Counted from the first letter of the stretch, positions 2,002 through 27,488 are shown. The stretch is DNA of 64,000 nucleotides from a virus (IMGVR_UViG_3300035490_000323:13999-77998), one strand, 5' to 3'. Made by a program: numbers and translations. The notes: generated by a model from the letters alone, not told the origin.

Positions 2002-5000
2002 ATGGCGATAGCGGACAAGTTCGACCTGGGCTTCGTGGGGAGGCTGATGCGCTCCCGCAACGGCACCGTTGTCGGCACGCTCGGCGACCTGCTGAAGAGC
2101 CCCAGGGCGAGGGACCTCTACAAGGAGGCCCTGGGCGTGCCCGTCATGGTCCTGGACAGGCCCGTGCAGGGGGGCAAGTTCGTGGACAGCCCCGACCCCA
2201 ACCTCAGGTTCTTCGGGGCCTGCGGCTCCCTCCGTGGCAAGGCATGCATATTCGTCAACCCCCGCTGGGGGGAGGAGGAGACCATAAGGACCCTCCTGGA
2301 GGAGGGGGCGCACGCCCTGCGCAAGCTGAAGGGCAGGCCAGCGACGAAGCAGGACATCACGGCCCTTACCTCGGAGAACATCGGGGAGATGCACGACAGC
2401 CTGCCGGAGGAGGTGTCCGCCAAGCAGATGGCGGAGTATGTCCTGAAGACAGCCGCCCAGCTTCCCTCCGTGGCCTTCCGCCAGGTGTGGCATATCGGCA
2501 GCATGGACCCCGAGGACAAGGGGAAGGATAGCCTGGAGGGGGCGGGGCTCAGCATATCCACCCACCCCGAGGAATGGCAGCAGATAGCCGAGCTGGGCGA
2601 GGGCCCGGTCTGGGAGCTTACGAGGAAGGGCAACAGGTTCCTTGACTTCCACCGCCTCACCAAGGCGCAGCTCGGTGCCATGGCCGACTGGGGGGCGCAG
2701 CAGGGCCTCATAGAGAGGCGGCCCGCCTGGCAGGTCAGGTGGTGGGACAGCGAGGACAACGGGTTCAGGTACGCGGAGACCGAGACCGAGGAGGAGGCGA
2801 AGGAGGAGGCCGGGGCGGTCGGGGGCAAGGTAAGGGCGCTCAGCAGCATAGCCTACCCGACTGACAGGCTGAGGAAGGCCACCAGGAACCCCCGTGCCAA
2901 CTCCGTGGTGGCCATGGACCTGCTGGCGACGGTCTATGCCGACAAGGCCCTGGGCTGGGACGGCGTATGGTGGCAGGATACCCTGGACGTGCCTGGCCTC
3001 AGCGCCCCGAGGGGCGTTATCCTCCCCTCCAGGCTGGCAGGGTGGCAGAGGCGGCAGGTAGGCATGGAGGGGATAGAGGACTACGGTGCCCCCGGCAGGA
3101 GGGTATCCTCGGACAGGAGGTTCATCTGGCAGGGCAGGCATGGCAAGGCCCCGCAGCCCGGCGTCCCCTATTACCATGTCGCCCCGGCCAGCTACCAGGA
3201 GGGCCAGGATATCTACTCCTACGATGCCTACCAGGACGAGTTCGGCGAGGAGCCCGAGTGGAAGTGGGAGGAGGGCCAGATTGGGGATACCGACAAGGTC
3301 TCCCTGCATGACAGCCTGGAGGAGGCAGAGGGCTTCCGGGAGGAGTGGGTCCCCGGTGGCAGGGTCATAGAGGTCGTGTTCCCCTCCCCGCTGGGGCAGC
3401 TAGGCCTGTCCGGAGGGGTGAACGGCGAGGGGTACCCGTTCGTCCGCCATCGTATACCAGGGGGGTTCGTCAGGAAGGTCAGCAGTGGCCGGAAAACACT
3501 GGAGGAGCTTGCCCTGGAGTTCCGTGAGAGGCAGGAGGACTGGTTCGAGTGGCAGGATGACAAGGCGTGCTTCCGGGAACAGTGCCTTGGCATAGCCAGG
3601 GGCCTGGCCAAGTTCCTGACGGAGAACGGCATCCCTGCCGAGCCTTGGCACAGTTACTATTATGACGATGACGGGAAGCCCCATAACCACTGGTGGGTCA
3701 TAGCCGGGGGCAGGGTGGTGGATGTAACGGCCGACCAGTTCCATCCCGAGGACCCCGACAGCTACCGGGTGGTCATAACAAGCCTGGATGACCCTCACTA
3801 CAGGCAGAGGAAGGCCAGGCAGGCCGGGACAGAGTCCTCCCCCCAGTCCGTTCCCGCCATGCAGGGGTGGGGCTATGACGAGCCGTTCCCTGACAGGCAC
3901 TCGGACTTCTTCGAGCTGGTGGAGAACCCCCACACGGACAGGGGCAGGGAGACCAGGGTGCTGGAGACCGGGGCACCGCCGCCCGAGGGCGGCGAGGGCA
4001 AGCCTGCCAGGGGAGAGCCTGGCCAGGAGGGCACGCTGGTCAGGCCGATGGCGTCCTTCAGGAGCGCCCTCCTGCGCAAGAAGGCATACAGTATCCTGGC
4101 GGTGTTCTGGGTCAAGCTCCAGGGGCGCATCCTGCTGTTCCCCAACAGGTTCCTCAACCATGACCAGATTCTACAGGAGACAGGCATCCCTGCGGGCGGC
4201 CCGGAGTACGACAGGATGCTGCGGGGCAGGGTGTTCATAGACCGGGAGAGGCGGCGGGTGAGGTTCACCCGGCACGGTGGGGGCTATACCCCCAACGATG
4301 TGGTGGAGGAGATTGTCAGCCGCTACCACCTCCAGGACTGGGAGATGGAGGACGAGGGCGAGGCCATGGGCAGGTACGGCTCTGTCCAGGGCGGGCCCGT
4401 GGTCGAGAGGCTCGGCCGTGAGGACATCCCCGAGGCCCTGGAGGTCATCGCCCAGTGCTTCCCCCAGTACGCGGACATCGCCGACGTGGTCTCCAGGGAC
4501 GTCCGGGGGGACTTCAGCCTCTCCTATGGGATGAGGCTGGAGGGCAGGATTATAGGCTGCTACCTCCTGGGCCGCGTGCAGCTACCCGAGGAGTACCCCG
4601 GCCGCCCCGAGGCACAGGCATACGCAGGTAAGAGGGGCGTGCGGGGGGTGTGCCTGTGCCTGCTGCCCCAGTACCGTGGCAAGGGGTGGGGGGCAAGGCT
4701 TCGGGCCGTCCCGCTCTCCCTGGGGGCGGACTATGTCTGGGGCGAGCATTACAGCAGCCTGGACAACCTCGGCAAGTGGACGAGCTTCGGACGCAGGCTG
4801 CTGTTCGACACGAAGGATGCCAAGGGGCAGCCCTACCATGTTACCGTCATGGACCTGAGGGGGGGGCCGCCGAAGGCCGCCTCCTCCAGGGACCCCTACC
4901 TCTACCATGTAGCGCAGCCGGGCACCCTCGGGAACATAGCGAGGGACGGGCTCCAGGGCGGCATACTGGGCCCGAAGGTGTTCCTTACCGAGAGGGCCGG

Positions 5001-8000
5001 GGTCGGCTTCTGGCGGGGGTACGATGCGTCCGCCCCCGTCCTTCGCATGCGGCGGGACCTGCTGGAGGACCTGGAGCCGGACGACTACGGGACACAGGAC
5101 TCCGGGTCCCCCTGCTACAGCGCCCAGCCCGTGCCCCCCGCCCGCCTGGAGTTCCGGGTGGACACCCCCCAGGGCGAGGCCTGGAGGCCCGTAAGGTACG
5201 CGCTCGCCAAGGCCGCCTCCCAGGGCATACCCTCCTTCAGGGGCCTCGTGCGGGAGCTTGGGGGCATGAAGTACCTCCTGTCCGAGGTCGATATCGACGA
5301 GTTCGACCTGGAGGGGTCGGGGAAGAAGCCCGAGGAGTACATCAGGGGCAAGTTCAACGAGGTGAGGTCGTTCTTCGCCGGGCTCAGGTACCCCATACCT
5401 GTCTACCGGGCAATAAGCGGGGACCGCAGCGAGCTGAGGACAAAGGGCTTCGGCACCTCGTGGTCGATGAGCGAGGGAGGGATGGGGGAGCAGGGGGCAT
5501 ACCCCTACGAGGGGAACCCGTCCAGCTACCAGGTCTACTCCTCCCACGTGTCGCCCAGGGACATAAACTGGACCAGCACCCTCCTGCTGGCCATGGGGAG
5601 ATGGTGGGACAGGGAGAAGGAGATAGTGGTGCGCAACGGGGCACGGCTCAGGGTCGGCGACGATGACGGCAGGATGTTCGAGGTGACGGCGTCCTTCGGG
5701 AAGACCGCCCTCAATGTCCCCAAGCTGGTCCAGGACTTCGGCGCGAAGCTCGTGGAGAGGTACAAGGCCGACTTCCCGGACGACACAAGGGAAATCGACC
5801 CGGCGGCCCTAATCAACTCCCTTGTCCCGCTCGACCCTACCGGCAACCATGAGTACGTGTCATGGATAGTGGGCAACTATGCCCGTGGGGAGCTTGGCGA
5901 GTACGATGATATCGAGGCCACCGTCATCCCGCTCATCGAGCGCTACCATGCCCTGAAGAAGACCAGGAACCTACAGCCCCAGGACACGAACATCCAGAGG
6001 CTACGCGGGAAGGCCGCCCTGGAGGCACTGCTGGCAAGGTACGCCGAGGTAGAGGCGGAGTCGAGGCGGCAGAGGGCCGTCAGCAGGGAGCAGGCGTTCT
6101 TCAGGAAGGGGGAGGCCGAGCTGGTGCATGACGACCCGGAGATGAAGGTCGTCATCCCCGAGACCTGCGAGGCGGCCAAGTTCTTCGGCGTCAACACGAG
6201 GTGGTGTACGTCGGCCGAGAGCAACAACGCCTTCCAGCAGTACCACGAGGAGGGGCCGCTCTACATCGTCCTGCTCAAGAGGGAGAACAAGAGGTTCCAG
6301 TTCCACTTCCAGACGGCGCAGTTCACGGACGAGGCGGACAGGCCGCTCGACATCGAGGAGTGGCTGGTGGAGCACCCCATGGTGGCCAGGCTGCTCGGGC
6401 CCCTGGCCGAGAAGGCCGATTCCGAGTGCGACGAGTGCGCTGGCCATGGGAGCAGCAGGTGCGGGGAGTGCGACGGCGAGGGGGCCGTGGAGTGCGTGGA
6501 GTGCGGCGGCAGCGGGCACGAGCGCTGCAACGACTGCCAGGGGAGGGGAAGGGTCCCCTGCGGCACATGCAACGGCGTAGGCATGGCGGGCGGGGGGGAG
6601 TGCCCGGCGTGCCACGGCGACCAGTACGAGCAGTGCGGCTCCTGCCATGGGACGGGCAACAAGAAGTGCGAGGAGTGCGACGGGCGAGGGTCCCATGCAT
6701 GCGGGAGCTGCGAGAACGGGAGCATAACGTGCGACAAGTGCGGGGGCACGGGCAAGAACCCCGAGATGAACCAGTTCCTCGAAGGGTGCCAGAGGGCCCT
6801 CGCAGGGCCGCTGTCCGTCCCTGCCCTCCGCAACCTCAGGAAGAAGAAGTGGCCAGCGCTGAAGAAGAGGGTCAAGGACTGGATAGAGCCCAGGAGGACC
6901 CCCGTACACGTCGGCCCCAGGGGCATGGCGTTCCTGCAATGGCTGGAGGGGGTGAAGAGGAGGCTCAAGGGCAAGAGGGGCAGCAAGACGGCAGCGGAGG
7001 GGAGGTGCCAGCACTGCGGGGGCAGCCGCATAGGCATGGCCCTGCACTCTCCCAGCGCTGACACCTACTGGTGCATGGACTGCAACAGGAACACCGACGT
7101 CAGGCGGGAGGGGGTAAGCTGGAGCCTGCGGGACGCTGTATCGAGGTGGGGCGGCAAGACGGCGGCCGGCGAGTGGTGGAGGAGGTGGAGGAAGACCGAG
7201 GTTCTCCCCAAGGGCACGGTCCTCTACCATGGGACGGCACAGGAGTTCCCAGGCATGGACCTTAGCCTGCCTGCCTGGTTCAGCACCTCCAGGTCGGTGG
7301 CGGAGCACTTCCAGTCATGGCACGGGGAGGACGAGGGGAAGCACCGCCTCCTGATGTTCAGGGCGACCAGGCCCATCCGCCTGCCCCGCATAGATGGCAG
7401 GGAGGACCTGGAGAGGATGGAGGACATGTTCGGCCTCCAGACCTCCTACGGGGCCGAGGACATAGTGGACAGCCTCTCCCAGAGCGGGCTGCCCGGCTGG
7501 GTTATCCCCCATAACTACCCGGACGGGGACGACATCCTGCTGGCGGAGACGGACAGCATCGAGTTCACGGGGCAGGAGCCCGAGGCCGCGGACGAGGAGA
7601 GCGGGGAGACGGACGAGTTCGGCCACAGCCTGGAGCTGCCCGGCAAGTGGACGAGGAACGGGGACGGCAACTGGGTCTACCATATGACCCCCGAGGAGAT
7701 AGCCGAGCGGGAGCGCATCGTGGGGAAGAAGGGTGCAGAGGCTAGTGAGGACCCCCCTGTCACCAAGGAGCTGCTCACCACCCGCAACCCCAAGGCGATG
7801 AGGCCCTACCGCCCCAGCCTGGTCACCACCGAGGGCAACCCCAAGATGGAGAAGGGCCTGTCCAGGGGATACCTCACGGGCGTCATGCACCTCATGCCGG
7901 CCGACAAGAGCGGGTACGGGAACGTCTGCCCCTTCAGCTCGGCGGAGTGCCGCCATCACTGCCTGAACACGGCCGGCAACTGGGTGCCGCACAAGCTCCA

Positions 8001-8436
8001 GTCCCGCATCTACAAGACCAAGCTATACTTCACGGACCGCAAGAGGTTCCTGGAGGAGCTGAGGAGGAGCATCGCCAGGCTGGCCAGGAAGGCGGAGGAG
8101 CAGGGGCTCCTGCCCGCCGTGCGCCTGAACGGCACCAGCGACATCCCCAGCCTCGGCCTGATGATGTCCAGGGAGTTCCCGGACATTACCTTCTATGACT
8201 ATACCCGCATACCCAAGCCCTGGCAGAGGATGAGGGGGAACTACCACCTTACCTTCTCCCGCTCTGGAGATGATGATAAGGAAGTAGAGGAGGCCTTGGA
8301 CCATGGGGTTAGCGTAGCCGTGGTCTTCGATACCAAGCCCAATCTTCCGTTACCAGGGGAATGGCCTAAGGGCAAAAGGCAAGGCAAGAGGGAAGGGGAC
8401 AGAGACCGGTTTTGTGCTAAAGAACCCCCTGCTTAA
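2002..8436 (+). CDS. 2144-aa polyvalent protein: degenerate zincin-like, several ART-like, papain/transglutaminase-like, GNAT, PcfJ-like, DnaJ-type Zn-finger, Zn-ribbon and C-terminal GP88-like domains
   Basis: Motifs in order: EEGAH; WHIG..LSISTHP; YYHVAP; C..IA..L...HxW...VDVTADQF; LLPQYRGKGWG; LYHVA...DDYGTQDSG...VPP; YRAI...TSWS...EKEIV; NTRWCTS..GPLYI; repeated CxxCxGxG; LYHGT..AWFST; NVCP...C...CLNTAG...RLNGTSDI...FYDYT...NYHLTFS. Confidence 0.8.
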   Translation: MAIADKFDLGFVGRLMRSRNGTVVGTLGDLLKSPRARDLYKEALGVPVMVLDRPVQGGKFVDSPDPNLRFFGACGSLRGKACIFVNPRWGEEETIRTLLEEGAHALRKLKGRPATKQDITALTSENIGEMHDSLPEEVSAKQMAEYVLKTAAQLPSVAFRQVWHIGSMDPEDKGKDSLEGAGLSISTHPEEWQQIAELGEGPVWELTRKGNRFLDFHRLTKAQLGAMADWGAQQGLIERRPAWQVRWWDSEDNGFRYAETETEEEAKEEAGAVGGKVRALSSIAYPTDRLRKATRNPRANSVVAMDLLATVYADKALGWDGVWWQDTLDVPGLSAPRGVILPSRLAGWQRRQVGMEGIEDYGAPGRRVSSDRRFIWQGRHGKAPQPGVPYYHVAPASYQEGQDIYSYDAYQDEFGEEPEWKWEEGQIGDTDKVSLHDSLEEAEGFREEWVPGGRVIEVVFPSPLGQLGLSGGVNGEGYPFVRHRIPGGFVRKVSSGRKTLEELALEFRERQEDWFEWQDDKACFREQCLGIARGLAKFLTENGIPAEPWHSYYYDDDGKPHNHWWVIAGGRVVDVTADQFHPEDPDSYRVVITSLDDPHYRQRKARQAGTESSPQSVPAMQGWGYDEPFPDRHSDFFELVENPHTDRGRETRVLETGAPPPEGGEGKPARGEPGQEGTLVRPMASFRSALLRKKAYSILAVFWVKLQGRILLFPNRFLNHDQILQETGIPAGGPEYDRMLRGRVFIDRERRRVRFTRHGGGYTPNDVVEEIVSRYHLQDWEMEDEGEAMGRYGSVQGGPVVERLGREDIPEALEVIAQCFPQYADIADVVSRDVRGDFSLSYGMRLEGRIIGCYLLGRVQLPEEYPGRPEAQAYAGKRGVRGVCLCLLPQYRGKGWGARLRAVPLSLGADYVWGEHYSSLDNLGKWTSFGRRLLFDTKDAKGQPYHVTVMDLRGGPPKAASSRDPYLYHVAQPGTLGNIARDGLQGGILGPKVFLTERAGVGFWRGYDASAPVLRMRRDLLEDLEPDDYGTQDSGSPCYSAQPVPPARLEFRVDTPQGEAWRPVRYALAKAASQGIPSFRGLVRELGGMKYLLSEVDIDEFDLEGSGKKPEEYIRGKFNEVRSFFAGLRYPIPVYRAISGDRSELRTKGFGTSWSMSEGGMGEQGAYPYEGNPSSYQVYSSHVSPRDINWTSTLLLAMGRWWDREKEIVVRNGARLRVGDDDGRMFEVTASFGKTALNVPKLVQDFGAKLVERYKADFPDDTREIDPAALINSLVPLDPTGNHEYVSWIVGNYARGELGEYDDIEATVIPLIERYHALKKTRNLQPQDTNIQRLRGKAALEALLARYAEVEAESRRQRAVSREQAFFRKGEAELVHDDPEMKVVIPETCEAAKFFGVNTRWCTSAESNNAFQQYHEEGPLYIVLLKRENKRFQFHFQTAQFTDEADRPLDIEEWLVEHPMVARLLGPLAEKADSECDECAGHGSSRCGECDGEGAVECVECGGSGHERCNDCQGRGRVPCGTCNGVGMAGGGECPACHGDQYEQCGSCHGTGNKKCEECDGRGSHACGSCENGSITCDKCGGTGKNPEMNQFLEGCQRALAGPLSVPALRNLRKKKWPALKKRVKDWIEPRRTPVHVGPRGMAFLQWLEGVKRRLKGKRGSKTAAEGRCQHCGGSRIGMALHSPSADTYWCMDCNRNTDVRREGVSWSLRDAVSRWGGKTAAGEWWRRWRKTEVLPKGTVLYHGTAQEFPGMDLSLPAWFSTSRSVAEHFQSWHGEDEGKHRLLMFRATRPIRLPRIDGREDLERMEDMFGLQTSYGAEDIVDSLSQSGLPGWVIPHNYPDGDDILLAETDSIEFTGQEPEAADEESGETDEFGHSLELPGKWTRNGDGNWVYHMTPEEIAERERIVGKKGAEASEDPPVTKELLTTRNPKAMRPYRPSLVTTEGNPKMEKGLSRGYLTGVMHLMPADKSGYGNVCPFSSAECRHHCLNTAGNWVPHKLQSRIYKTKLYFTDRKRFLEELRRSIARLARKAEEQGLLPAVRLNGTSDIPSLGLMMSREFPDITFYDYTRIPKPWQRMRGNYHLTFSRSGDDDKEVEEALDHGVSVAVVFDTKPNLPLPGEWPKGKRQGKREGDRDRFCAKEPPA

Positions 8437-8438: not shown

Positions 8439-8834
8439 CTAGGCAAGGTGCCTATGTGCCAGTGCTTCTAGCATCCTCTCAAAGTCCCCGTCAGGAAACG
8501 CCCCCCGTGCCCGGTTGTATATCCAGCATGTAAGTCTTACATTTTCCGGGGAATAATCCCCTGTCTGGGATATGCGGTCTAAGGAAGGGCTGAACGAGTT
8601 GCTCCTGCTTCCCTTCCCCCCGTTTATATGGAGTTCCAGGGGTATCCCAGTTACCTCGCATACGCCTTTCTTGAGCTTCTCCTCAATCCAGGCCTGGGTG
8701 ATAGAGCACTTCACCTTTGCCTTTGCCGCCCGCTTTCTGGCATTGCAAAGAAGGAAGGATGCACGCCCATTTGTGGTCGTATAGTATTTGGAGAACTTCT
8801 TGTAGTTTAAGACCCTTTGCTTTTCTGTCGGCAT
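8439..8834 (-). CDS. HNH-like endonuclease (free-standing)
   Basis: CEVTG...SPSLDRI...YSPENVRLTCWIYN motif; more AT-rich than its neighbours. Confidence 0.75.
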   Translation of the reverse strand: MPTEKQRVLNYKKFSKYYTTTNGRASFLLCNARKRAAKAKVKCSITQAWIEEKLKKGVCEVTGIPLELHINGGKGSRSNSFSPSLDRISQTGDYSPENVRLTCWIYNRARGAFPDGDFERMLEALAHRHLA

Positions 8835-8869: not shown

Positions 8870-9919
8870 CTATACCTTCCTCCGGTACCCCCCCATGCAC
8901 ACGAGCTGCACGGCGTCCGGGTTGACGGCGAAGCCAGCCTTCTCAGTGAGGGTAAAGCCCATATGGTCAGGAGGATAGTCGGCTGACAGCACGCTCATCC
9001 TCGCCTCGTCGGCCACGTACCCCGCGTGGACTGCATCGTCTACCCCGTCCACGGCCCTCGTGGCCCTGGTATGCCCGGTGACGTACATCCACCCCTGGGG
9101 CACAGACCGGCTCTGGTAGAACGCGGTACCGTCAATATACCCCAGCAGCCCCGTCTTGAGCGTTACCCTGTCGTGGTTGCGGTAGAGCCTGTCGTCCCTC
9201 AGCCCCAGCAGCTCCGTGGCATCGTGCGGGTGGGCGAAGATGTACTGGGCCTCCTTGACGCCCCGCCCCGAGAGCCTCTCCCTTGCCTCCTCCAGGAAGG
9301 AGGGGCTGAACGGGACGATGTCCCTGGCCACAGAGTCCATCAGGGAGAACATCCACATGTCCTCGGCATCGGTCACCTCCCCCTTTGCCAGGTTGAGGCA
9401 GCGTGCGACCAGGTCGAACCGGCGCTCTGTCACGTGCGAGGCGGGGAACCCGACCTCCGATGTAATCTCGAAGGCCGGGATGTCAGTGCCGTCCCCCGTG
9501 CTGCGGAGCTTGTCGTAATGCACGCCGTTATAGAGGGGCAGGACGCTGTGCAGGCCCAGGCGGCCAAGGCTGGAGACGTGGCTCCCGTCCACCACGCAGA
9601 AGGCCTTGCGGACCAGGCTCTTGTAGTCCCTGCGGCGTCTCAGGGACGGTCCCATGGCCTCCGCCAGCCTCCGGCGGCCATCGGCGTTCTTGAGGAAGCT
9701 GTAGATAAGGTCCTCCTGCTCGGGGGTCGTATGGGGGATGCCCCCAAGGTATACCTGCTCCCTGTCAAGCCAGAAGACGTCCCCCTGGGCAGTATCCCCC
9801 GTATCCTCCTGGGCAAGCGCCACGGCCAGGCTGCTGGCCCTAAGCTGCCGTGCCCCTAGCAGTGCTGCCGTCCCCCCCAGCAGCGACCGGAAGAACCCCC
9901 TGCGCACCATCGTCCCCAT
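8870..9919 (-). CDS. Divergent major capsid protein paralog (HK97-like) with N-terminal twin-arginine-like signal
   Basis: GRRRLAEAMGPSLRRRRDY, FEI...ERRFDLV..AKGEV..AED, LKTGL...SRSVP and VLSAD..GF..E match, from memory, the major capsid protein of large phages. The N-terminus reads MVRRGFFRSLLGGTAALLG. Confidence 0.7.
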   Translation of the reverse strand: MGTMVRRGFFRSLLGGTAALLGARQLRASSLAVALAQEDTGDTAQGDVFWLDREQVYLGGIPHTTPEQEDLIYSFLKNADGRRRLAEAMGPSLRRRRDYKSLVRKAFCVVDGSHVSSLGRLGLHSVLPLYNGVHYDKLRSTGDGTDIPAFEITSEVGFPASHVTERRFDLVARCLNLAKGEVTDAEDMWMFSLMDSVARDIVPFSPSFLEEARERLSGRGVKEAQYIFAHPHDATELLGLRDDRLYRNHDRVTLKTGLLGYIDGTAFYQSRSVPQGWMYVTGHTRATRAVDGVDDAVHAGYVADEARMSVLSADYPPDHMGFTLTEKAGFAVNPDAVQLVCMGGYRRKV

Positions 9920-10370
9920 TGCCGTGCCCCTCCTTTGCCTGCTCTATACAGTACCCCTGGAAGGCCTTGAGCACCCTTGGCCTCTCCCTTACCCATTCCC
10001 ACGCCGTCCTGCCGTCCGGCATGGCTATGATGCCTATTACGTCCCCCAGCGGCCTCTTCTCGCCCCTGGCGGTCATCCTGAGGTCGTACCATAGCCACTC
10101 GTCCGACACGTCCCCGTGGTCGTAGTCCTGGTGCTCCTTGCTCACGGGGTCGTACAGCCCCCTCCTCCTGCCGCTGTGGAAGCTGGCCAGCAGGAAGAGC
10201 ATCTCGAACAGCATCAGGCACCACATGATGGAGTAGACAGCGTACAGCTCCGGTACCCTCGGCGTTATCTGCCCGGTCAGGAACGACCAGTCCCAGAAGG
10301 CCGTCGCCAGCACCACGAATGCGGCGGCCAGGAGGTACCGCAGCTCTTGCTCTTCCCCGAGTATCCTCAT
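9840..10370 (-). CDS. Hypothetical membrane protein
   Basis: Two hydrophobic stretches in the N-terminal half; coupled to neighbouring ORFs. Confidence 0.6.
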   Translation of the reverse strand: MRILGEEQELRYLLAAAFVVLATAFWDWSFLTGQITPRVPELYAVYSIMWCLMLFEMLFLLASFHSGRRRGLYDPVSKEHQDYDHGDVSDEWLWYDLRMTARGEKRPLGDVIGIIAMPDGRTAWEWVRERPRVLKAFQGYCIEQAKEGHGNGDDGAQGVLPVAAGGDGSTARGTAA

Positions 10371-10678
10371 ACCACCACCTCCAGCAGCTCCCTTAGGTCT
10401 ATGCCGTGCTTCCTGGAAAGCTCCAGTATCTTCCCTGCCCTCCCCAGGTACCTTAGCTTCGTGATACCTGCCTGGCCCCAGGACTCGTCGTTATAGGAGC
10501 ACCCGTCTATATGGTTGGAGTTGCAGGTCTTGCGGTGGATGTAGTCCGCTACGTCCCTCGGGTCCCTGTGGTCCAGGGTATGGTCCTCGGCCTCCATCAC
10601 GTTGGTGAAGGTCCTGCTACAGCGCTCGCACTCTATGATGAACCTTATCCCCACCAGCCCCCCGTCCTTGAGCCTCAT
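10367..10678 (-). CDS. Hypothetical protein with C2H2-like motif
   Basis: MRLKDGG...CERC...H..H; start overlaps the upstream stop. Confidence 0.55.
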   Translation of the reverse strand: MRLKDGGLVGIRFIIECERCSRTFTNVMEAEDHTLDHRDPRDVADYIHRKTCNSNHIDGCSYNDESWGQAGITKLRYLGRAGKILELSRKHGIDLRELLEVVV

Positions 10679-11103
10679 CAGTCCCCTGTCCTTCCCTCGG
10701 CCTCGATGGCATCGTTGAGGTTGACCCTGAGGTCCTTCTCGGAGGCGATGACACGGGTGACGCTGGGCATGTCGTCCCCGCCGATGGCCGTCAGCTTCAG
10801 GTTGGTGTTGTTCCATCCGCACCCGTAGGGCTCCTCCTTCGGGGGGAACTTCTCTATCTCCCTGAGCACCTGCTCCCCCACGGGGCTGACGCCCTCCCTC
10901 CTGGCCTTCCGCGAGGCCCTCGGCCCGATGGTGTCCGTCTTGACCGCTGTCGCGCTGCCAGTCAGGCCGGTGGTGTCCATGTTGGTGTCGCTGCTCACGA
11001 TAGAGGACTCAAGCTCGGAGAACCTTACCGCCCCCTTCTTGCGCAGCTCCCGGTTGGGCCGGTCCTTCCCCATCTTCCTTACCCGCTTTACCCTGGCCTT
11101 CAT
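10678..11103 (-). CDS. Hypothetical protein
   Basis: MKARVKRVRK start after a GGAGG Shine-Dalgarno; tiles with neighbours. Confidence 0.55.
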   Translation of the reverse strand: MKARVKRVRKMGKDRPNRELRKKGAVRFSELESSIVSSDTNMDTTGLTGSATAVKTDTIGPRASRKARREGVSPVGEQVLREIEKFPPKEEPYGCGWNNTNLKLTAIGGDDMPSVTRVIASEKDLRVNLNDAIEAEGRTGD

Positions 11104-11273
11104 ACTGCCTCCTTTATGCGCCTGTCGCAGTAGGTACAATACCCCGAGGGCTCTATCGCCTCCTGGCCCCTGCCCCCCATGAACTTGGGGTCCTGTACCC
11201 ACTCCCTGGTGGGGAGGAACCTGTGGCAGAACTTGCACTGGGCCCAGTGCCCCGTCCTGAGCACGGCCCGCAT
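11100..11273 (-). CDS. Small Zn-finger protein
   Basis: MRAVLR...CKFC...CTYC. Confidence 0.5.
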   Translation of the reverse strand: MRAVLRTGHWAQCKFCHRFLPTREWVQDPKFMGGRGQEAIEPSGYCTYCDRRIKEAV

Positions 11274-14791: not shown

Positions 14792-15184
14792 ATGAAGAAG
14801 ATTCTCGCTATACTGCTCTTGGCCTGCCTGGTCGCATTCACCTCGCCCGCGATGGCGAAGGGGTCCGACACGGCCACCACGACCTTTACCCTGACCATCA
14901 ACGCACCGCTCGCTATCTCTACCCCGGCAGCGCTCCCCGGAGGGGTGGCGGGAGCGTCCTATGCCGTTACCCTGGCGGCCACAGGCGGCGTGCCGCCCTA
15001 TACCTGGTCCCTCAACAGCGGCTCCACGCTCCCCGCAGGGCTGACCCTGACATCGGCAGGGATACTGAGCGGGACGCCGACCACGGCGGGCACCTATTCC
15101 TTCGGCATTACAGTGACGGACTCCAAGCTGTCGCTGGTCAAGGCGGCCGCGAGCGTGAAGGTACCGGCGTCAGTATTGAAGTAG
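14792..15184 (+). CDS. Secreted putative Ig-domain (He_PIG-like) protein
   Basis: Signal peptide MKKILAILLLACL...AMA; LAATGGVPPYTWS...LPAGLTL...GILSGTPT..GTYSF. Confidence 0.85.
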   Translation: MKKILAILLLACLVAFTSPAMAKGSDTATTTFTLTINAPLAISTPAALPGGVAGASYAVTLAATGGVPPYTWSLNSGSTLPAGLTLTSAGILSGTPTTAGTYSFGITVTDSKLSLVKAAASVKVPASVLK

Positions 15185-15185
15185 C

Positions 15186-15542
15186 ATGAGAGGGCGTAGG
15201 CGTACCATACTCGGCGCTGCACTGCTGCCCCTTGTGGTCATCCTGGCCCCGCTATGGCTGGGCCAGGGATGCCGCCCGGCCCCGCGTGCCCCTGTGCAGG
15301 CCACGGTGCCGGAGGCCAAGACTTTTGGCCCCTACCACCCCTATATAACCACGAAGGCGCTCCCAAAGGGCGTCCAGGGGCAGCCCTACTACTTCCAGCT
15401 CTCCGCATCGGGGTGCCCGCCCAAGGGGTGCATGTGGGTCGTGGTAGGCCTGCCCAGGGGGCTCAGGGCGTCCGCTGCCGGGGTCATCTCCGGGACCCCT
15501 ACCTCCTCGGGAAGCTCTAACGTGACTGTGACTGTGCTATGA
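15186..15542 (+). CDS. Membrane-anchored or secreted He_PIG-like Ig protein
   Basis: Hydrophobic N-terminus; ITTKALPKG..GQPY...LPRGL...GVISGTPT. Confidence 0.8.
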   Translation: MRGRRRTILGAALLPLVVILAPLWLGQGCRPAPRAPVQATVPEAKTFGPYHPYITTKALPKGVQGQPYYFQLSASGCPPKGCMWVVVGLPRGLRASAAGVISGTPTSSGSSNVTVTVL

Positions 15543-15928
15543 AATGGCCTGCCGTCATCCTGCTCCTGCTGTCCCTGGGTATCACGGGGGCCCGGGCCCA
15601 GGATAAAACATCCCAAACCTTCACCATAGCGGTGTCAGCCCATGACGTTACTCTTTCCTGGACCCCGCCCACCCTCCTGGCGAATGGCAATCCCCTCCCT
15701 ACCGGTTCAGTTATAACCTATAATGTCTTCAGGGGGTCAACGCCCGGCGGGGAGGGCCCTACCCCTATCAATCCCGTGCCGGTCAGCACCGCAGGCTACA
15801 AGGACATTAAGGTGATTGGCGGGGCGACCTACTATTACTATGTCGAGGCCATAAACACCCTCGACGGGGTTACCAGCCCCCCGTCCGTGCCGTCCATGGA
15901 GGCGACTGCTACCGTTCCCTCGCCGTAG
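15539..15928 (+). CDS. Secreted fibronectin type III domain protein
   Basis: Signal peptide; VTLSW...YNVFRG...YKD..V..GATYYYYVEA. Confidence 0.85.
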   Translation: MKWPAVILLLLSLGITGARAQDKTSQTFTIAVSAHDVTLSWTPPTLLANGNPLPTGSVITYNVFRGSTPGGEGPTPINPVPVSTAGYKDIKVIGGATYYYYVEAINTLDGVTSPPSVPSMEATATVPSP

Positions 15929-18113: not shown

Positions 18114-19337
18114 TTACCACGTCTCCACTACCATAGTTCCCACGAAGTTCGTGGCCTGACCGCTGGTAGCAGACGCAAGGTTTCCGACGTAAACATAGAA
18201 CGTGCCCGAAGACATGTCTATGTTCGTGTCCCTGGTGGCGGCATTGTATGAGCTTCCAGCAAACGGCGTGCCGTTGACTACCATGGACACTATGTTGGAG
18301 CTGGAGCCCAGGACGTCGATAATAAACTCGAAGTAGTTTTCCCCAGCCCATAGGCCAGGCCCCGTGTTCGAAGCACCTAGTATAGTGGTGTAGGTCGTAT
18401 TGTTATTGTACTGGCTGTAGGCGTAGAACTCCCCGCTGCTGGGTATAGTCATCCCTAAGGTATAGCCATGCCCGGACGTGGACGTGGCGTCCTTGGATAC
18501 GTATAGGTCGTAATAAACGTAGGTGGCATTATAGACCATGTTCCAAGTCCACCTGATGCGGATGCGCTTGAACCCCGTGAAGCCCTGTACCGACTGATAC
18601 AGGTTCGTGCCGGAGAAGAAAGTTGCCGGGGAGTTCCAGGTTATAGCAGTCTCGGTGTAGCCTGATACGTGGCCGCTAGGTCCAGTGTATCCGGTATAAC
18701 CAGTGTAACCTGTGTATCCGCTATACCCCGTGGCCCCGTACCCGGTATAGCCTGTGAAGCTCCCTGGGCCTGTGTAGCCGGTGTACCCCGTCCCTCCTGG
18801 CCCCTGCTGGCCAGTGTAGCCTGTGAACCCTGTGTAGCCGGTATAGCCTGTGCCCCCAGGGCTTGCAGGGCCTGTGTAGCCGGTGTATCCTGAATATCCG
18901 GTGTAGCCAGTGTATCCCGGTCCTGTGTAGCCCGTGTAGCCGGTAGCGCCAGGACCGGTATATCCTGTGTAGCCTGAGTACCCTGTGTAGCCGCTACCAC
19001 CGATGTAGCCGGTGTATCCAGAGTAGCCTGTGAAGTTCCCAGGTCCCGTGTATCCTGTGTAGCCTGTGTAGCCTGAGTAGCCAGTGTAGCCGGAATAGCC
19101 CGTGAAGTTCCCTGGTCCCGTGTAGCCCGTGAACCCAGAATAGCCAGTGTAGCCAGAATAGCCGCTGTATCCGGTGTAGGCCCCGGTCCCCGTGTACCCT
19201 GTGTAGCCTGAGTATCCAGTGAAGTTGCCCGGACCTGTGTAGCCTGTGTAGCCAGAGTACCCCGTGTAGCCTGAATACCCCGTGTAGCCGGAATATCCGG
19301 TAGGGCCTCCGGGAGTGATAACGACGTTCTTGGCCAT
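18114..19337 (-). CDS. Collagen-like Gly-Tyr-Thr/Ser repeat fibre protein with a beta-rich C-terminal head
   Basis: About 210 aa of G-X-Y triplets (GYT/GYS/GFT), then an aromatic/Asn/Thr-rich globular domain. Confidence 0.8.
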   Translation of the reverse strand: MAKNVVITPGGPTGYSGYTGYSGYTGYSGYTGYTGPGNFTGYSGYTGYTGTGAYTGYSGYSGYTGYSGFTGYTGPGNFTGYSGYTGYSGYTGYTGYTGPGNFTGYSGYTGYIGGSGYTGYSGYTGYTGPGATGYTGYTGPGYTGYTGYSGYTGYTGPASPGGTGYTGYTGFTGYTGQQGPGGTGYTGYTGPGSFTGYTGYGATGYSGYTGYTGYTGYTGPSGHVSGYTETAITWNSPATFFSGTNLYQSVQGFTGFKRIRIRWTWNMVYNATYVYYDLYVSKDATSTSGHGYTLGMTIPSSGEFYAYSQYNNNTTYTTILGASNTGPGLWAGENYFEFIIDVLGSSSNIVSMVVNGTPFAGSSYNAATRDTNIDMSSGTFYVYVGNLASATSGQATNFVGTMVVETW

Positions 19338-19354
19338 CTCTGCTTAGGGCCCCC

Positions 19355-20098
19355 CTATTTGCTTATCACGAACATCCCCTGCCCGTACGTGCTCGTGCCG
19401 CCAGAGTTGTTCCTAATATAGGTCTGGATTTGCCCGACCTCGCTGGCCAAGGACTGCGCGTAGCACAGCCCGCTCGGGGTATCCTTCCCACCTATGCCGC
19501 TCTCGTTGGGCAGGGCGGTGAACAGGCTCGTAAGGCCGCCGAAGGACGACGGGGTCCACGAGGGGTTGCTAAACCCGCCGTTGAAGTACCATTCCGTGGT
19601 GATTATGTAGTATGCGGGGCTCGGGTAGCTGACGTTCGCCCAGTACAGCGTCCCGTAGGCATAGGCGGCCAGGGTGGGGAAGGCTGCCGGGGTCCAGCTA
19701 TAGACGGCCGACGTCCCCTGAATCTCAATCACCGCGCCCACGTTCCAACCGTACCCGCCGACGTTATAGGGGTAGGGCCAGGCCGCGGACGGGAACACCC
19801 ATGCCTTGCCGTCGCCCGCCTGCACTATCCTGGTGCCGAGGTTGCACCCGGTGCTGGCCCCCGTGCCGTACGAGGGGGTCGAGGCCGTTACCGTCACGCC
19901 GCTGGGGAGCGGCGTCGTCGTCAGGGCAAGGCCGCTCCATATCGCTATGAAGAGGAGCGTGTCGCCCACTGTCGGGGTGCTGCCGAGGTTGACCGTGATG
20001 TTGCCGTTGAAGTTGAGAGCGCCAGCGGACTGGACCAGGACTGGCGTGGTCACATGCCTCCCGTACATCCCTGCGAGGATATGGGGCGCGTATGGCAT
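19355..20098 (-). CDS. Putative fibre-associated beta-rich protein
   Basis: Lies between two fibre genes; TP.LVQS...TPTVGDTLL pattern. Confidence 0.55.
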   Translation of the reverse strand: MPYAPHILAGMYGRHVTTPVLVQSAGALNFNGNITVNLGSTPTVGDTLLFIAIWSGLALTTTPLPSGVTVTASTPSYGTGASTGCNLGTRIVQAGDGKAWVFPSAAWPYPYNVGGYGWNVGAVIEIQGTSAVYSWTPAAFPTLAAYAYGTLYWANVSYPSPAYYIITTEWYFNGGFSNPSWTPSSFGGLTSLFTALPNESGIGGKDTPSGLCYAQSLASEVGQIQTYIRNNSGGTSTYGQGMFVISK

Positions 20099-22458
20099 TA
20101 TGTCTTGGACCAGCTCCCCGACAGCACGAACGCCGTCCAGTGGTTCGATGCATCGCAGACTATGCCGATGGCATCGCCGGCCGCCCCGGCCGAGGCGAGC
20201 GTCCCGGCAGAGGAGCCGTTCACGCCGTACAGGGCGGCGGTATTGGAGGCCGCCATCTGGATGGTCATCGCCGACGTGATTCCCGCGTAGTTGGCATAAA
20301 TCCTCTGCATCCCCGCCGTGCCCGCAGGGGCATCGAAGGTGATGGTGCCGTAGTTGTTGAAGATGTAGTAGTCCACCCCGCCAGGGTCCGCCACCGGCCC
20401 TGCCGTGCCCTGGACGAGGGTAGGGACGGCGGATATGGAGGCACCGACAGGGCCAGTATAGCCGGTATAGCCTGAATATCCCGTGTAGCCTGAATAACCT
20501 GTGTAGCCTGAGTATCCTGTGTAGGCTGTGTAGCCAGTGTAGCCAGTGAAGCCCGTGAAGTTCCCAAGGCCGGTGTATCCCGTGTAGCCTGAGTAGCCCG
20601 AATACCCTGTTATGCCTGGACCTGTGTAGCCTGTGTAGCCTGTGTAGCCTGAATAGCCTGTGTAGCCTGAGTAACCTGTGTAGCCTGTACGCCCTGTGTA
20701 GCCCGTATATCCAGAGTATCCGGTGTAAGCTCCCGGTCCTGTGTAGCCTGTGTAGCCTGTGTATCCTGAATAGCCAGAGTAACCTGTGTAGCCCGTGATA
20801 TTAGGACCAGTGTAGCCCGTGTATCCAGAGTATCCTGTAAAGTTCCCCGGCCCCGTATAGCCTGTGAACCCAGAATAGCCCGTGTAGCCTGAGTATCCGC
20901 TGTAGCCTGTATCACCCGTATAGCCGGTAGAGCCCATCCCCCCGACCATGAACAGCCCGAAGTGCCCGTCATAGACCGTGAAGACCGCGTCTGCGGTGCT
21001 GCTGGTGACCCGTAGGTCAAAGACGTCCCCGAGGCTGGCGTTGATGATATCGGCCATGGCGGCGGCCTTGTACTCGCCGCTGCCCAGGCCGCTTACCACC
21101 GCCTCGTCACCGGCAATCTCCAGGCTGTTCTGGAAGAAGGCGATACGGAAGTCCGCTCCCAGGTCCCCTATGGTCGAGAGGACGGCGAAGAGCTTGTAGC
21201 TCCCCGGCTGGAGGACGGTAAGGCTGCTCCCGTCTACGCCGACACCCACCCTGTCGATGGTGCCTATCGTCCAGATGCCGCTTATCTGATAGAACTGGTT
21301 GGCATTGACGACTGTGGTCCCGGAGACGTTGGACTGGGTGTAAAGCTCCCCGAAAGCGCTGCCGGGCTGGAACCCCGTATACCCCGTGGACCCAGTGAAG
21401 TTGCCTGGGCCAGTATAGCCGGTGTAGCCTGAGTATCCAGTGTAGCCTGAGTATCCGCTGTATCCTGAGTAGCCCGTATAGCCGCTGTCGCCTGTAAACC
21501 CCGTGTATCCCGAGTAGCCTGTGAACCCGGTGAAGTTCCCCGGCCCGGTGTAGCCCGTGTAGCCTGTTATGCTGGGCCCAGTATAGCCTGTGTATCCAGA
21601 GTAGCCTGTGGCTCCTGTAGATGCCGCCTGGCCCGCAGGGCCGGTATCCCCGGAGTACCCCGTGTACCCGCTGTAGCCCGTGAACGCTCCGGGCCCGGTG
21701 TAGCCTGTATCCCCGTAGCCTGTGTATCCAGTGTAGCCAGTATCACCAGTGTAGCCAGTGTAGCCGCTATAGCCGGTAATGTTCGGGCCTGTATAGCCCG
21801 TGAAGCCCGTGAAGTTCCCCGGTCCAGTGTAGCCGGTGTAGCCCGAGTATCCAGTGTAGCCAGAATAGCCGCTGGGCCCGGTAAAGTTCCCCGGTCCAGT
21901 GTATCCCGTGTAGCCGCTGAAGCCCGTAAAGTTCCCTGGCCCGGTAGGGCCGGTATGCCCCGTGTAGCCTGAATACCCCGTGTATCCAGAATAGCCCGTG
22001 AACCCGGAATAGCCCGTAAAGTTGCCGGGACCGGTATCACCAGTGTAGCCCGTGTATCCCGTATATCCAGAGTAGCCGGAATAGCCCGTGTATCCCGAAT
22101 ACCCTGTGAAGTTCCCTAGCCCCGTGTATCCAGTGTAGCCCGTGATGTTCGGGCCGGTGTAGCCCGTGAACCCTGTGCCCCCCGTGTAGCCCGTGAAGCC
22201 CAGCCCGGTGTATCCCGAGTACCCCGTGGCCCCCATTATCCCCTGGGACAGGAAGCCCCACCAGGGGGAGTTCACCTGCGGGACGTTGCCGGTGTTGCCC
22301 GGCTTCAGGGATATCCAGGAGTTGCCGTTCCAGGTGGCCACATGGTACTGCGGGTAGGTCTTGCTGGCGTTCCAGGGCGTGATGAAGGTCACCACCACCC
22401 CGCTGCTGCTCACGGTCGTCACGGAGGGGATAGACGGGTTGATTATGCCCTGTGCCAT
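20098..22458 (-). CDS. Collagen-like GYT-repeat fibre with N-terminal CBM5/12-like module and internal C1q/BclA-like domain
   Basis: WNASKTY...V.WNGNSW.S...GNVP...WW; two long G-X-Y tracts flanking SAFGELY...PGSYKL...GDVFDLRV. Confidence 0.75.
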   Translation of the reverse strand: MAQGIINPSIPSVTTVSSSGVVVTFITPWNASKTYPQYHVATWNGNSWISLKPGNTGNVPQVNSPWWGFLSQGIMGATGYSGYTGLGFTGYTGGTGFTGYTGPNITGYTGYTGLGNFTGYSGYTGYSGYSGYTGYTGYTGDTGPGNFTGYSGFTGYSGYTGYSGYTGHTGPTGPGNFTGFSGYTGYTGPGNFTGPSGYSGYTGYSGYTGYTGPGNFTGFTGYTGPNITGYSGYTGYTGDTGYTGYTGYGDTGYTGPGAFTGYSGYTGYSGDTGPAGQAASTGATGYSGYTGYTGPSITGYTGYTGPGNFTGFTGYSGYTGFTGDSGYTGYSGYSGYSGYTGYSGYTGYTGPGNFTGSTGYTGFQPGSAFGELYTQSNVSGTTVVNANQFYQISGIWTIGTIDRVGVGVDGSSLTVLQPGSYKLFAVLSTIGDLGADFRIAFFQNSLEIAGDEAVVSGLGSGEYKAAAMADIINASLGDVFDLRVTSSTADAVFTVYDGHFGLFMVGGMGSTGYTGDTGYSGYSGYTGYSGFTGYTGPGNFTGYSGYTGYTGPNITGYTGYSGYSGYTGYTGYTGPGAYTGYSGYTGYTGRTGYTGYSGYTGYSGYTGYTGYTGPGITGYSGYSGYTGYTGLGNFTGFTGYTGYTAYTGYSGYTGYSGYTGYSGYTGYTGPVGASISAVPTLVQGTAGPVADPGGVDYYIFNNYGTITFDAPAGTAGMQRIYANYAGITSAMTIQMAASNTAALYGVNGSSAGTLASAGAAGDAIGIVCDASNHWTAFVLSGSWSKT

Positions 22459-25328: not shown

Positions 25329-25682
25329 TGGTGGAGGCGTCGGGAGTTGAACCCGAGTCCGAAGAGTTCCACGACCAGGAGACTACACGCTTGTCCGGTT
25401 CCTTCTCGCCTTGCTCCAGGCCCCTATGGACTCCGGCAATCACAGGGCCCGTCCGCATGCCTTGTCTCGCCACGGGAGCGGCAAGCATCCCCTGGCCAGC
25501 CTCCCAATCGACGCCTGGCCCCCGCCCGAAAGGCGGAAGCGGGGCAGGCGGCCTAACCCTAAAGGTTAAGCAAACGCATACTGCATGTTGGCAGTTGCTA
25601 ATCCCATCCCTGTTACGGTCGGCATGGGGCCACCGGCGTGCCTCCTAGCTATGGGCGCTCCCGTCGATTCCGATACGCCCCC
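25329..25682 (-). ncRNA. ssrA: tmRNA, tag peptide (A)ANMQYAFA*
   Basis: 5' GGGGGCG...GAAUCGAC; 3' CUCGGGUUCAACUCCCGACGCCUCCACCA with G3:U; resume codon GCC at 25592, stop at 25568-25566. Confidence 0.95.
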
Positions 25683-25847
25683 GGAGACTGACTACTGCTG
25701 CTGCAAGCTGTAGGGCCGCCTCTAAGCCGCCACATCGCGCTGAGCCATTCTTCCATGGGCCCCTCGACTTTAGGCAGCGTGGTTGAGCAGCGGCCCCACT
25801 ACTACGAGAGGGGACGGGGGCTCGGACCCCGAATGCTTCCCCCCTGC

Positions 25848-25857
25848 TATATAATAC
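25848..25857 (-). promoter_or_regulatory. Putative -10 box GTATTATATA driving the tmRNA/RNase P unit
   Basis: Identical to the box at 28988-28997. Confidence 0.55.
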
Positions 25858-25866
25858 ACTGGAAAT

Positions 25867-25959
25867 TGGTCCCGGTGCTGGGAGTCGGACCCAGTCCATT
25901 CCCTAATCTGGGGATTCACGGTTTATAAGACCGCTCGTTCGGCCGCAAACTTCACCGGG
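25867..25959 (-). tRNA. Atypical tRNA, UAU anticodon (Ile, AUA) with long variable arm
   Basis: Acceptor CCCGGUG/CACCGGG-A-CCA; anticodon arm GCGGU-CUUAUAA-ACCGU; extra arm UCCC-CAGAUUA-GGGA; T-arm CUGGG-UCCGACU-CCCAG. Confidence 0.75.
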
Positions 25960-25965
25960 AAGGAA

Positions 25966-26042
25966 TGGCAGCGTAGACCGGGCTTGAACCGGCTATTGCC
26001 CTGGTTGAAGGCCAGGGGACTCGACTCTTCGTCTTCTACGCC
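25966..26042 (-). tRNA. tRNA-Glu(UUC), atypical D-arm, C33
   Basis: CCUGG-CCUUCAA-CCAGG; T-loop UUCAAGC; CCA encoded. Confidence 0.85.
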
Positions 26043-26205
26043 AAAAATTTAAGGCCGGATGGCATCCACGTTTGGGCCCATGCAGGCATGGCAAGGGCTG
26101 GCACCGGCCTCGGTTTGCCAGCTCCCACTACGTGGCCCGGTTAAGACCGCCGTCCCGATGCGACCACCAATCAGACCTGCGGTCAAGGTATATGGTGGCC
26201 TCGCT

Positions 26206-26280
26206 TGGAGGCGCAGGGGAGAATCGAACTCCCGCTTAAAGGTTTTGCAGACCTCTCCCTTCCCACTTGGGTACTGCGCC
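26206..26280 (-). tRNA. tRNA-Cys(GCA)
   Basis: Cloverleaf, loop CUGCAAA, U73, CCA. Confidence 0.95.
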
Positions 26281-26286
26281 GAATCC

Positions 26287-26361
26287 TGGAGGCCCGAGAG
26301 GGAATCGAACCCTCGCGTAGCGGTTTTGCAGACCGCCGCCTTGCCACTTGGCTACCGGGCC
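26287..26361 (-). tRNA. tRNA-Cys(GCA)
   Basis: Cloverleaf, loop CUGCAAA, U73, CCA. Confidence 0.95.
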
Positions 26362-26666
26362 AATACCTTCCTGGACCCGCCCTGCTCCCGCTCGAAGCCG
26401 TGCTCCCAGAGCCGGTGCGAGTCCTCCCCGAGCATCTCGGGGGTATAGTCGTTGTCGAAGAACCAGCGGACCAGGTGCGTCCTCGGGTACCGCTTGAACA
26501 GCTCCTCGAAGCACTCGAAGGTCAGGCGGTCCAGGAACTCCTCCGGCACGTAGCAGTGCTCCTTGTCCCAGGCCTTCCCAATCTCCTTCGTCCACCAGTC
26601 CCAGTTGAGCTTCCCGCGCAGGTACCGCATGAGAAGCTCGGGCTCCCGGCAGCCCTCCTCGGGCAT
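26352..26666 (-). CDS. Hypothetical protein inside the tRNA array (true start may be further upstream)
   Basis: 104-aa ORF; the frame stays open upstream past 26800. Confidence 0.5.
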   Translation of the reverse strand: MPEEGCREPELLMRYLRGKLNWDWWTKEIGKAWDKEHCYVPEEFLDRLTFECFEELFKRYPRTHLVRWFFDNDYTPEMLGEDSHRLWEHGFEREQGGSRKVLAR

Positions 26667-26855
26667 CCTCCCGTGGGTCTCGCAGCTAAAGCAGCACTCG
26701 CCGCCGCTGAGCCCGCCCTCCCTTAGCGGGGGAGGGGTCGTGTTGGTCCGGTCCCACTGCTGGCCTGTCCATGGGGTGGAGCACCTGCTCCACCTTAGGT
26801 AGCTTCCAGCAGTTCTAGGTACCTCTTGGTCAGCCTCATACGGGCCTCACGGGCT

Positions 26856-26931
26856 TGGTAGGGTAGGCGGGAATCGAACCCGCAATCTCCTGGTTGAGGG
26901 CCAGGTGACTTAACCGTTCGTCTACTACCCC
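26856..26931 (-). tRNA. tRNA-Glu(CUC), C33
   Basis: CCUGG-CCCUCAA-CCAGG; CCA. Confidence 0.9.
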
Positions 26932-26938
26932 GGAAACT

Positions 26939-27015
26939 TGGTAGCGTCGGTGGGATTTGAACCCACGGTTTGAGCCTTGAGGGGGCCCCGTCCTAGGCCG
27001 CTAGACGACGACGCC
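26939..27015 (-). tRNA. tRNA-Glu(CUC), C33
   Basis: GGGCC-CCCUCAA-GGCUC; CCA. Confidence 0.9.
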
Positions 27016-27482: not shown

Positions 27483-27488
27483 TGAACT

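Follow-up and report, generated by a model that had tools for sequence, protein, structure and literature searches.

A Huge-Phage HK97-Fold Capsid-Protein Relative with a Predicted Twin-Arginine-Type Leader

Proteins of the HK97 fold are known as virion shells and as the cytoplasmic encapsulins. The present study concerns P0001, a gene on the minus strand of a 64,000-nucleotide stretch of viral DNA (IMGVR_UViG_3300035490_000323:13999-77998; this whole stretch at its full length is called the window below), the product of which joins such a fold to an N-terminal leader that appears to be of the twin-arginine translocation (Tat) type. The closest described proteins are the canonical major capsid proteins (MCPs) of huge phages (gp27, structure 6wkk; PF25209, Phage_capsid_4; PHROG 2522; NF042927), to which P0001 is homologous over residues 66–345, with the same fold and motifs, and from whose group it derives in the tree. 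P0001 differs from these MCPs in its Tat-type leader and linker, in a shortened presumed E-loop and in an insertion of about 18 residues; its type also has branches 10–100 times longer and a sporadic occurrence, and the copy in the complete relative G002 lies outside the head module.

The vertex protein gp24 of phage T4 is likewise a diverged duplicate of an HK97-fold shell protein, gp23, and was found among the structural matches of P0001 (1yue, Z 14.2). Paralogs of the gp24 type, however, are core virion genes without an export signal, whereas the P0001 type is missing in most relatives (13 of 14 large records) and carries the Tat-type leader. The best structural matches were encapsulins (Z 16, M. 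xanthus EncA), the precedent for an HK97 fold outside the virion. Encapsulins are cellular, cytoplasmic, devoid of a signal peptide and paired with cargo genes; P0001 is phage-encoded, related in sequence to phage MCPs and without a cargo-like neighbour, and an encapsulin assignment was rejected on these grounds. With class I Tat signal peptides (PF10518, TIGR01409) P0001 shares an RR pair followed by x-F-F at the extreme N-terminus (x-F-L also in relatives), a mild Gly/Ala/Thr-rich hydrophobic region (h-region), basic residues and an AxA-type site. It is unlike the usual class I signals in sitting on a phage capsid fold, in its sub-threshold profile scores, in a Val at the Z position and in a short h-region, and export is predicted from sequence. 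The superinfection-exclusion lipoproteins Llp of phage T5 and Ltp of phage TP-J34 are accessory phage proteins that are sent to the envelope, and offer a functional analogy only; they bear signals of the Sec or lipoprotein type and have neither sequence nor fold kinship to P0001. No description of a signal-bearing capsid-protein paralog was found in full-text literature searches, in a jumbo-phage comparison (PMC7824862), in a 2026 preprint on huge-phage envelope-associated proteins or in PMC13673990.

According to the reading preferred here, to which a probability of about 0.55 is assigned, P0001 would be an accessory, fast-evolving duplicated MCP with a class I Tat leader, exported by the host TatABC translocase, cleaved after ALA36 and acting in the periplasm or envelope. 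The lineage that carries it is a clade of huge (300–460 kb) soil and peat phages.

Capsid Fold and Start of the Gene

The features of the gene are as follows (window coordinates).

8870–9919, minus strand: gene P0001, 349 amino acids (aa), Tat-type candidate paralog of the capsid protein (ORF list, translation, GC3, dN/dS)
8885–9724, minus strand: residues 66–345, HK97-fold core (phmmer, alignment, AlphaFold, Foldseek, VIA-align)
9725–9811, minus strand: residues 37–65, acidic variable linker joining the leader to the capsid core (relatives, low pLDDT)
9812–9919, minus strand: residues 1–36, predicted twin-arginine-type leader with n-region, RR motif, h-region, basic c-region and ALA cleavage-type site (translation, homologues)
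9812–9820, minus strand: A-L-A, residues 34–36, putative AxA-type signal peptidase I site before QED (translation)
9890–9904, minus strand: RRGFF, residues 6–10, which fits R-R-x-Phi-Phi of the Tat consensus (R6 and R7 invariant)
9929–9935, minus strand: Shine–Dalgarno-like AAGGAGG, 9 nt upstream of ATG 9919 (read from the sequence)

A phmmer search against the PDB matched residues 66–283 to the MCP gp27 of phage G (6wkk_A, E 1.5e-11). The protein also matched PHROG 2522, "major head protein" (E 3e-5), and in tblastn about 80 canonical MCPs at 30–37% identity (E 1e-35 to 1e-40). The model NF042927, "HK97-fold major capsid protein", gave 16.7 bits where its cut-off is 80, and a Pfam-A search of P0001 returned no match at E ≤ 1. 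Since the scores lie far below the family cut-offs, P0001 was considered strongly diverged, a diverged derivative rather than a typical member, and the strongly diverged likeness to large-phage MCPs noticed in an earlier reading of the DNA (the sequence-only reading) was borne out.

The AlphaFold model obtained with an alignment of 71 sequences, which superseded a poor initial model from seven sequences (predicted local distance difference test, pLDDT, 61), had a pLDDT of 85.8 and a predicted template modelling score of 0.80. It was confident at residues 61–345 and not at residues 1–60, with pLDDT below 50 at residues 34–60. Foldseek assigned the model a probability of 1.0 to HK97 proheads and encapsulins, and VIA-align superposed 205–225 residues at a root-mean-square deviation of 3–4 Å (Z 14–16). 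The comparison with HK97 folds that the sequence-only reading had proposed as a check therefore came out in its favour, and the model supports an HK97 capsid fold for P0001. The family motifs of the N-arm, GRxxLA, RRRDY and ERRFDL, are present. In comparison with the canonical MCPs, the Tat-type proteins are without 11–19 residues after RKA, at the presumed E-loop, and have an insertion of about 18 residues before the long strands of the P-domain (region of GHTRATRAVDGVDDAVHA). As judged from the HK97 fold, this deletion and insertion touch parts that make lattice contacts in capsids.

The open reading frame (ORF) is an intact run of 349 codons. The GC content at third codon positions (GC3) in its frame was 0.73–0.97 from about 9950 down to 8915, and the signal changed from the frame of the upstream gene to that of P0001 at about 9950–9995. 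L086 and L087, environmental copies with 98% identity, have the same Shine–Dalgarno bases, and the 56%-identical orthologue in L088 has GGAGG 7 nt ahead of its ATG; in L088 and L091 the reading frame opens just three codons before MMRRRRFF. The first 60 residues of P0001 are unchanged in L086 and L087, and the 7–8 substitutions of these copies all fall in the mature part. GC3, the Shine–Dalgarno sequence and the homologues support a translation start upstream of the RR motif and not downstream of it, the case that the sequence-only reading had named as fatal to itself.

Were translation to begin further downstream, for instance at the GTG of Val33, the product would be a cytoplasmic, leaderless copy, conceivably a decoy or a regulator of capsid-sensing defence or of assembly. 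The database entry P0002 does start at that GTG, and the upstream start overlaps the preceding gene by 80 nt; the P0002 start is regarded as a gene-caller artefact because of this overlap. GC3 is nevertheless already that of the P0001 frame from about 9950, a strong Shine–Dalgarno sequence stands before the first ATG and none was seen before the GTG, the leader is kept in relatives without an overlapping upstream gene, and it shows 100% identity in L086 and L087, the mature part of which varies. A downstream start is accordingly held to be very improbable. The capsid sensors now known are cytoplasmic. A decoy for such sensors was rejected, since export would take the protein out of their compartment, and the sequence-only suggestion of a decoy for capsid-sensing immunity fits poorly.

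The ratio of nonsynonymous to synonymous substitution rates (dN/dS) of P0001 was 0.32–0.38 against L086 and L087 and 0.52–0.55 against L088 and L091, and its dN was 0.32 as compared with 0.17–0.22 in the neighbouring genes. By these values the gene is functional, under purifying selection and the fastest-evolving of its block; a pseudogene was ruled out, the frame being intact and dN/dS below 1.

Leader Conservation, Family and the Canonical Capsid Gene

The N-terminus of P0001 consists, in order, of MGTMV (n-region), RRGFF, the Gly/Ala-rich hydrophobic stretch SLLGGTAALLGA, RQLR and ASSLAVALA, followed by QED (residues 34–39 are ALA-QED). The added N-terminus with RRGFF, a hydrophobic stretch and ALA-QED that the sequence-only reading had described is present in all its parts, whereas about 80 canonical MCPs of the clade have no extension and begin at the core. 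R6 and R7 are invariant in an alignment of six sequences (A2). The closest homologues that keep the leader, P0004 (57% identity), P0005 (49%) and P0006 (47%), have in common the pattern M-x-R-R-x-F-F-x-x-L-L-G-G-T-A-A-x-L-G-A. Relatives at 23–57% identity carry ERRSFF, ERRNFF, QRRNFL, ERRNFI, ERRNFL, DRRRFF or SRRGFL, each motif being followed by 12–17 uncharged residues; leader-bearing members of the family include P0008 (ERRNFI), P0018 (ERRNFL), P0054 (SRRGFLR), P0062 (DRRRFF) and P0126 (SRRNFLR). At the position of ALA the relatives have AMA, TWA, GWG or ATA. The linker differs among them in length and sequence, the leader being conserved, and the latter is retained in relatives with as little as 38% identity.

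For Tat signals in general, the motif Z-R-R-x-Phi-Phi and the rule of AxA cleavage were taken from a 2026 review (PMC13673990). Residues 5–10 of P0001, V-R-R-G-F-F, agree with this motif, as do E/Q/D/S-R-R-x-F-F/L/I in the relatives. The h-region and the AxA site were judged by simple rules; the h-region of P0001 is mildly hydrophobic (Kyte-Doolittle 1.49) with 12 uncharged residues, the relatives having 16–17. These data support a conserved leader of the Tat type in P0001, and conservation appears to fall exactly on the Tat consensus, with the rest of the extension variable.

The only other RR-type leader in this record belongs to a small protein with a He_PIG immunoglobulin (Ig) domain (15186–15542), not to a virion copy, and is far more hydrophobic (Kyte-Doolittle 2.34). 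That gene forms part of a cluster of three small adjacent genes with N-terminal signal-type leaders at 14792–15928, about 5 kb from P0001. Putative He_PIG Ig domains are encoded by two of the three (E 9e-13 and 2e-6), and an RRR-type leader that ends in LGQGC by the middle gene; in the related phage L088/L091 this set of secreted Ig-like proteins varies. A Tat rather than a Sec leader on P0001 is notable beside the ordinary, more hydrophobic leaders of these three small secreted proteins.

Scans of IMG/VR and of metagenomes yielded about 150 loci encoding relatives at 30–37% identity, many of them on contigs of 150–463 kb. At 73 IMG/VR loci the gene start was read: the protein begins with M(A)NLSR, at P0001 residue ~60–65, and directly upstream of these canonical starts lie stop codons or non-coding sequence, from which it follows that P0001 is longer by about 60 residues. 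When 1.84 billion representative proteins were searched with a profile, 352 members of the family were recovered, among them the leader-bearing P0008, P0018, P0054, P0062 and P0126. In a maximum-likelihood tree restricted to the core columns, the leader-bearing proteins group in a single clade (ultrafast bootstrap 92; SH-like approximate likelihood-ratio test 96) that emerges beside the canonical MCPs, and the subclade with P0001 and the G002 copy has support 97/89. The stem of the leader-bearing clade is 0.49 and its tips are 0.12–2.9, as compared with 0.007–0.15 for canonical MCPs. The tree points firmly to a single origin of this main clade, and the Tat-type gene is an old, sporadically kept, fast-evolving duplicate. 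In a separate quick tree of 104 rows the leader-bearing P0126 fell within another subfamily, a sign that a leader may have been fused a second time and independently.

The Tat-type family comprises at least 10 clusters at 50% identity and is widespread in peat and wetland metagenomes; the stretch itself occurs in metagenomes of peat, wetland and soil from 19 studies, and no RNA run is among the public runs listed as containing it. A scan of 185,579 prokaryote genomes contained no relative of P0001, and prophages therefore give no clue to the host; a scan of viral contigs with P0005 gave no match. Apart from these proteins, 32 representatives of the MCP family (among P0017–P0145) form a separate monophyletic group whose N-terminal extension is conserved but of another kind, M-[DN]-R-[YF]-x-I-x-L-G-K-x-P-P-P and then a tract rich in Lys and Pro.

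The source record is a 77,998-bp IMG/VR entry with a CheckV completeness of 25%, corresponding therefore to a genome of roughly 300 kb. Window 36.4–63.9 kb is colinear with G002, a complete IMG/VR genome of 455,708 bp, at 30–52% protein identity, and the ribonucleotide reductases of the two are 66–67% identical, which places both in one huge-phage clade. The 27-kb block, at 36407–63901 of the window, matches G002 positions 83–57 kb. It contains four proteins of 791–1290 aa with 39–52% identity to G002 and no Pfam or PHROG family, which are conserved core genes of the clade.

G002 has a canonical MCP (PHROG 2522, E 7e-42) 4 kb downstream of the head maturation protease, and, 157 kb from it, a second MCP-family gene whose product is closer to P0001 than the canonical one (42% identity, E 6e-48). 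This second protein begins M-Q-R-R-N-F-L-R-G-L-L-L-A-P-L-A-G-L-F-P-T-F-T-W-A, then E-V, and it is the only convincing Tat-like ORF in the whole 455-kb genome. The canonical gene was found in all 14 large relatives, three of which, among the 13 with the canonical gene only, are complete genomes (300–463 kb); the Tat-type copy was found in one of the 14, G002, and is therefore accessory. No synteny of the window locus with the locus of the G002 paralog was seen beyond the gene itself, and the neighbours of P0001 showed no homology to those of canonical MCPs.

These comparisons bear on the alternative that P0001 is a virion protein, either the only MCP of its lineage or a special vertex subunit in the manner of T4 gp24, in which the N-terminal 60 residues would be a propeptide or a segment resembling a scaffold, cut by the head protease, and the Tat likeness incidental. 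The gene is the sole member of the MCP family in the 78-kb record, it has kept the full fold with the N-arm motifs, and it is under purifying selection; in addition, many phage capsid proteins have cleaved N-terminal segments. Yet the record covers an estimated 25% of the genome, and in the colinear G002 the head module is distant from the block that it shares with the window. G002 possesses both genes, and three other complete relatives build heads without the Tat-type copy, which speaks against this copy as the shell protein of the clade or as a vertex protein essential to it; the sporadic occurrence of the gene led to rejection of the essential vertex protein as a candidate. Furthermore, the conserved part of the extension is the Tat consensus and the remainder varies, the presumed E-loop is shortened, and evolution is far faster than in canonical MCPs. 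A virion role is considered quite improbable. By far most likely, the canonical MCP of this phage lies in the unsampled 75% of the genome. As to the sequence-only description of P0001 as a capsid paralog, an accessory paralogous lineage is in evidence, G002 having both genes, whereas a single capsid gene was found in this 25%-complete record.

Proposed Role in the Cell Envelope

In the mechanism proposed here, the duplicate would have retained the whole HK97 fold and gained about 40–60 N-terminal residues, namely the signal peptide and the variable linker. The protein would be made in the infected cell and fold in the cytoplasm; a Tat and not a Sec leader would have been selected because the protein must fold first. 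The TatABC translocase of the host would then recognise RRGFF and move the protein over the cytoplasmic membrane, signal peptidase I would release it after ALA36, and the mature HK97-fold domain would act in the periplasm or cell envelope and not in the virion. Our best guess is that capsid contacts have been turned, in the mature domain, into a binding module, either for self-association or for a partner in the virion or envelope. It could thereby alter the infected cell's envelope, so as to exclude related phages, for example.

Several observations weigh against this proposal. A Val and not a polar residue precedes RR in P0001, and the uncharged stretch is short (12 residues) and followed by a second hydrophobic stretch. 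The leader of P0001 gave no match to Pfam TAT_signal (E ≤ 10) or to the NCBIfam models, and the G002 copy (16.0 bits), P0018 (17.4) and P0054 (17.5) scored below the Pfam TAT_signal cut-off of 22.7 bits; the profiles used, PF10518 and TIGR01409, are short models and hence weak tests. A Tat system in the host is assumed; the phage genomes G000, G002 and G006 yielded no TatA gene. The 78-kb record, ~25% complete, contains a single copy of the MCP family and no recognisable head gene, and the status of P0001 as a paralog is read from relatives. We infer from the leader and the relatives that P0001 is exported, cleaved and employed outside the virion.

Some of the same features would also accommodate a leader that is uncleaved or stalled, tethering the capsid-like protein, perhaps as an oligomer of the capsomer kind, at the cytoplasmic membrane or at the Tat translocase, where it could serve as an assembly anchor or occupy and block the host's Tat export. 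The conservation of the leader applies equally to such a tether. The 12-residue h-region of P0001, the RQLR and the second hydrophobic stretch are atypical and might retard or block its passage; oligomers are usual among HK97-fold proteins, and two hydrophobic segments are present in the product of the conserved upstream gene. On the other hand, Arg at 11, 24 and 27 interrupts the hydrophobic stretch and would make it a poor stable anchor, a plain AxA-type site follows soon after a h-region of 16–17 residues in most relatives, and the membrane-protein neighbour is not conserved beside the G002 copy. Tethering is thus judged unlikely, although it is the most credible of the alternatives to export with cleavage.

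If the export of P0001 is true, a capsid fold has been recruited to a job in the bacterial envelope, phages use the folded-protein export route for a capsid-fold protein, and huge phages remodel the host envelope using parts derived from their own virion. The design suggested by the sequence is that of a re-used HK97 capsid protein and, at the same time, of a Tat substrate of an unusual type. The Tat-type family is small yet clearly defined, with a single origin and purifying selection. Annotation may wrongly take its members for "the" major capsid protein, an error that would mislead capsid-based phage taxonomy and predictions of capsid size. A more general and distinctly tentative idea is that unrelated phage groups may repeatedly have fused a Tat signal to copies of their own HK97 capsid protein and export them as undescribed envelope-acting factors, in the form of capsomer-like assemblies or by binding to the virion or envelope, e.g., in exclusion; the window would then hold a full-length huge-phage example, of a single origin.

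Neighbouring Genes and the Rest of the Window

The genes adjoining P0001 are the following.

9840–10370, minus strand: 176-aa gene with two hydrophobic segments, upstream of P0001 and co-oriented (GC3 0.87–1.0; 67% identity and same order in L088–L091)
about 10367–10678 and 10678–11238, minus strand: two further small co-oriented genes (same order in L088–L091), without a Pfam or PHROG family
8439–8834, minus strand: HNH/endonuclease VII-type gene directly downstream of P0001 (phrog_3322, E 2e-24)

The overlap of the 176-aa gene with the start of P0001 (80 nt, 9840–9919) is kept at ~58 nt in L088, and the leader-coding region is therefore partly dual-coding in this lineage. L088–L091, representing the P0004-type phage, share synteny with about 20 kb of the window, including the three small upstream genes and the tRNA nucleotidyltransferase. 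In the co-oriented gene run GC3 was 0.8–1.0 in the coding frame of each gene, with a lower GC in the HNH gene; this gene is probably a homing-endonuclease insertion that does not belong to the P0001 feature, since its GC is lower and it is absent at that place in L088–L091. A second HNH/endonuclease VII-type gene, related to it (phrog_3322), is found at 46570–47223. The neighbours of P0001 are of the accessory type, as the sequence-only reading had also recognised, and comprise a 2144-aa polyvalent protein, the HNH endonuclease, the tRNA nucleotidyltransferase (further upstream) and small ORFs.

Giant polyvalent-type proteins are encoded at window 2002–8436 (2144 aa) and at L082:7288-12756 (1822 aa). 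The 2144-aa protein ends in a Pfam GP88 domain (E 1e-29), and near its gene a 411-aa protein has an InPase domain fused to a nucleotidyltransferase. At 25329–28813 the minus strand contains a phage transfer-messenger RNA (tag peptide ANMQYAFA) and then 16 tRNA genes, among which those for Cys, Glu and Asp are duplicated; two overlapping calls on opposite strands at 35852–35971 look doubtful. At 18114–22458 a 247-aa ORF separates the genes of two collagen-like proteins of the tail-fibre type with Gly-X-Y repeats (407 and 786 aa), for which PHROGs 5073 and 6320 were the matches (E down to 5e-55).

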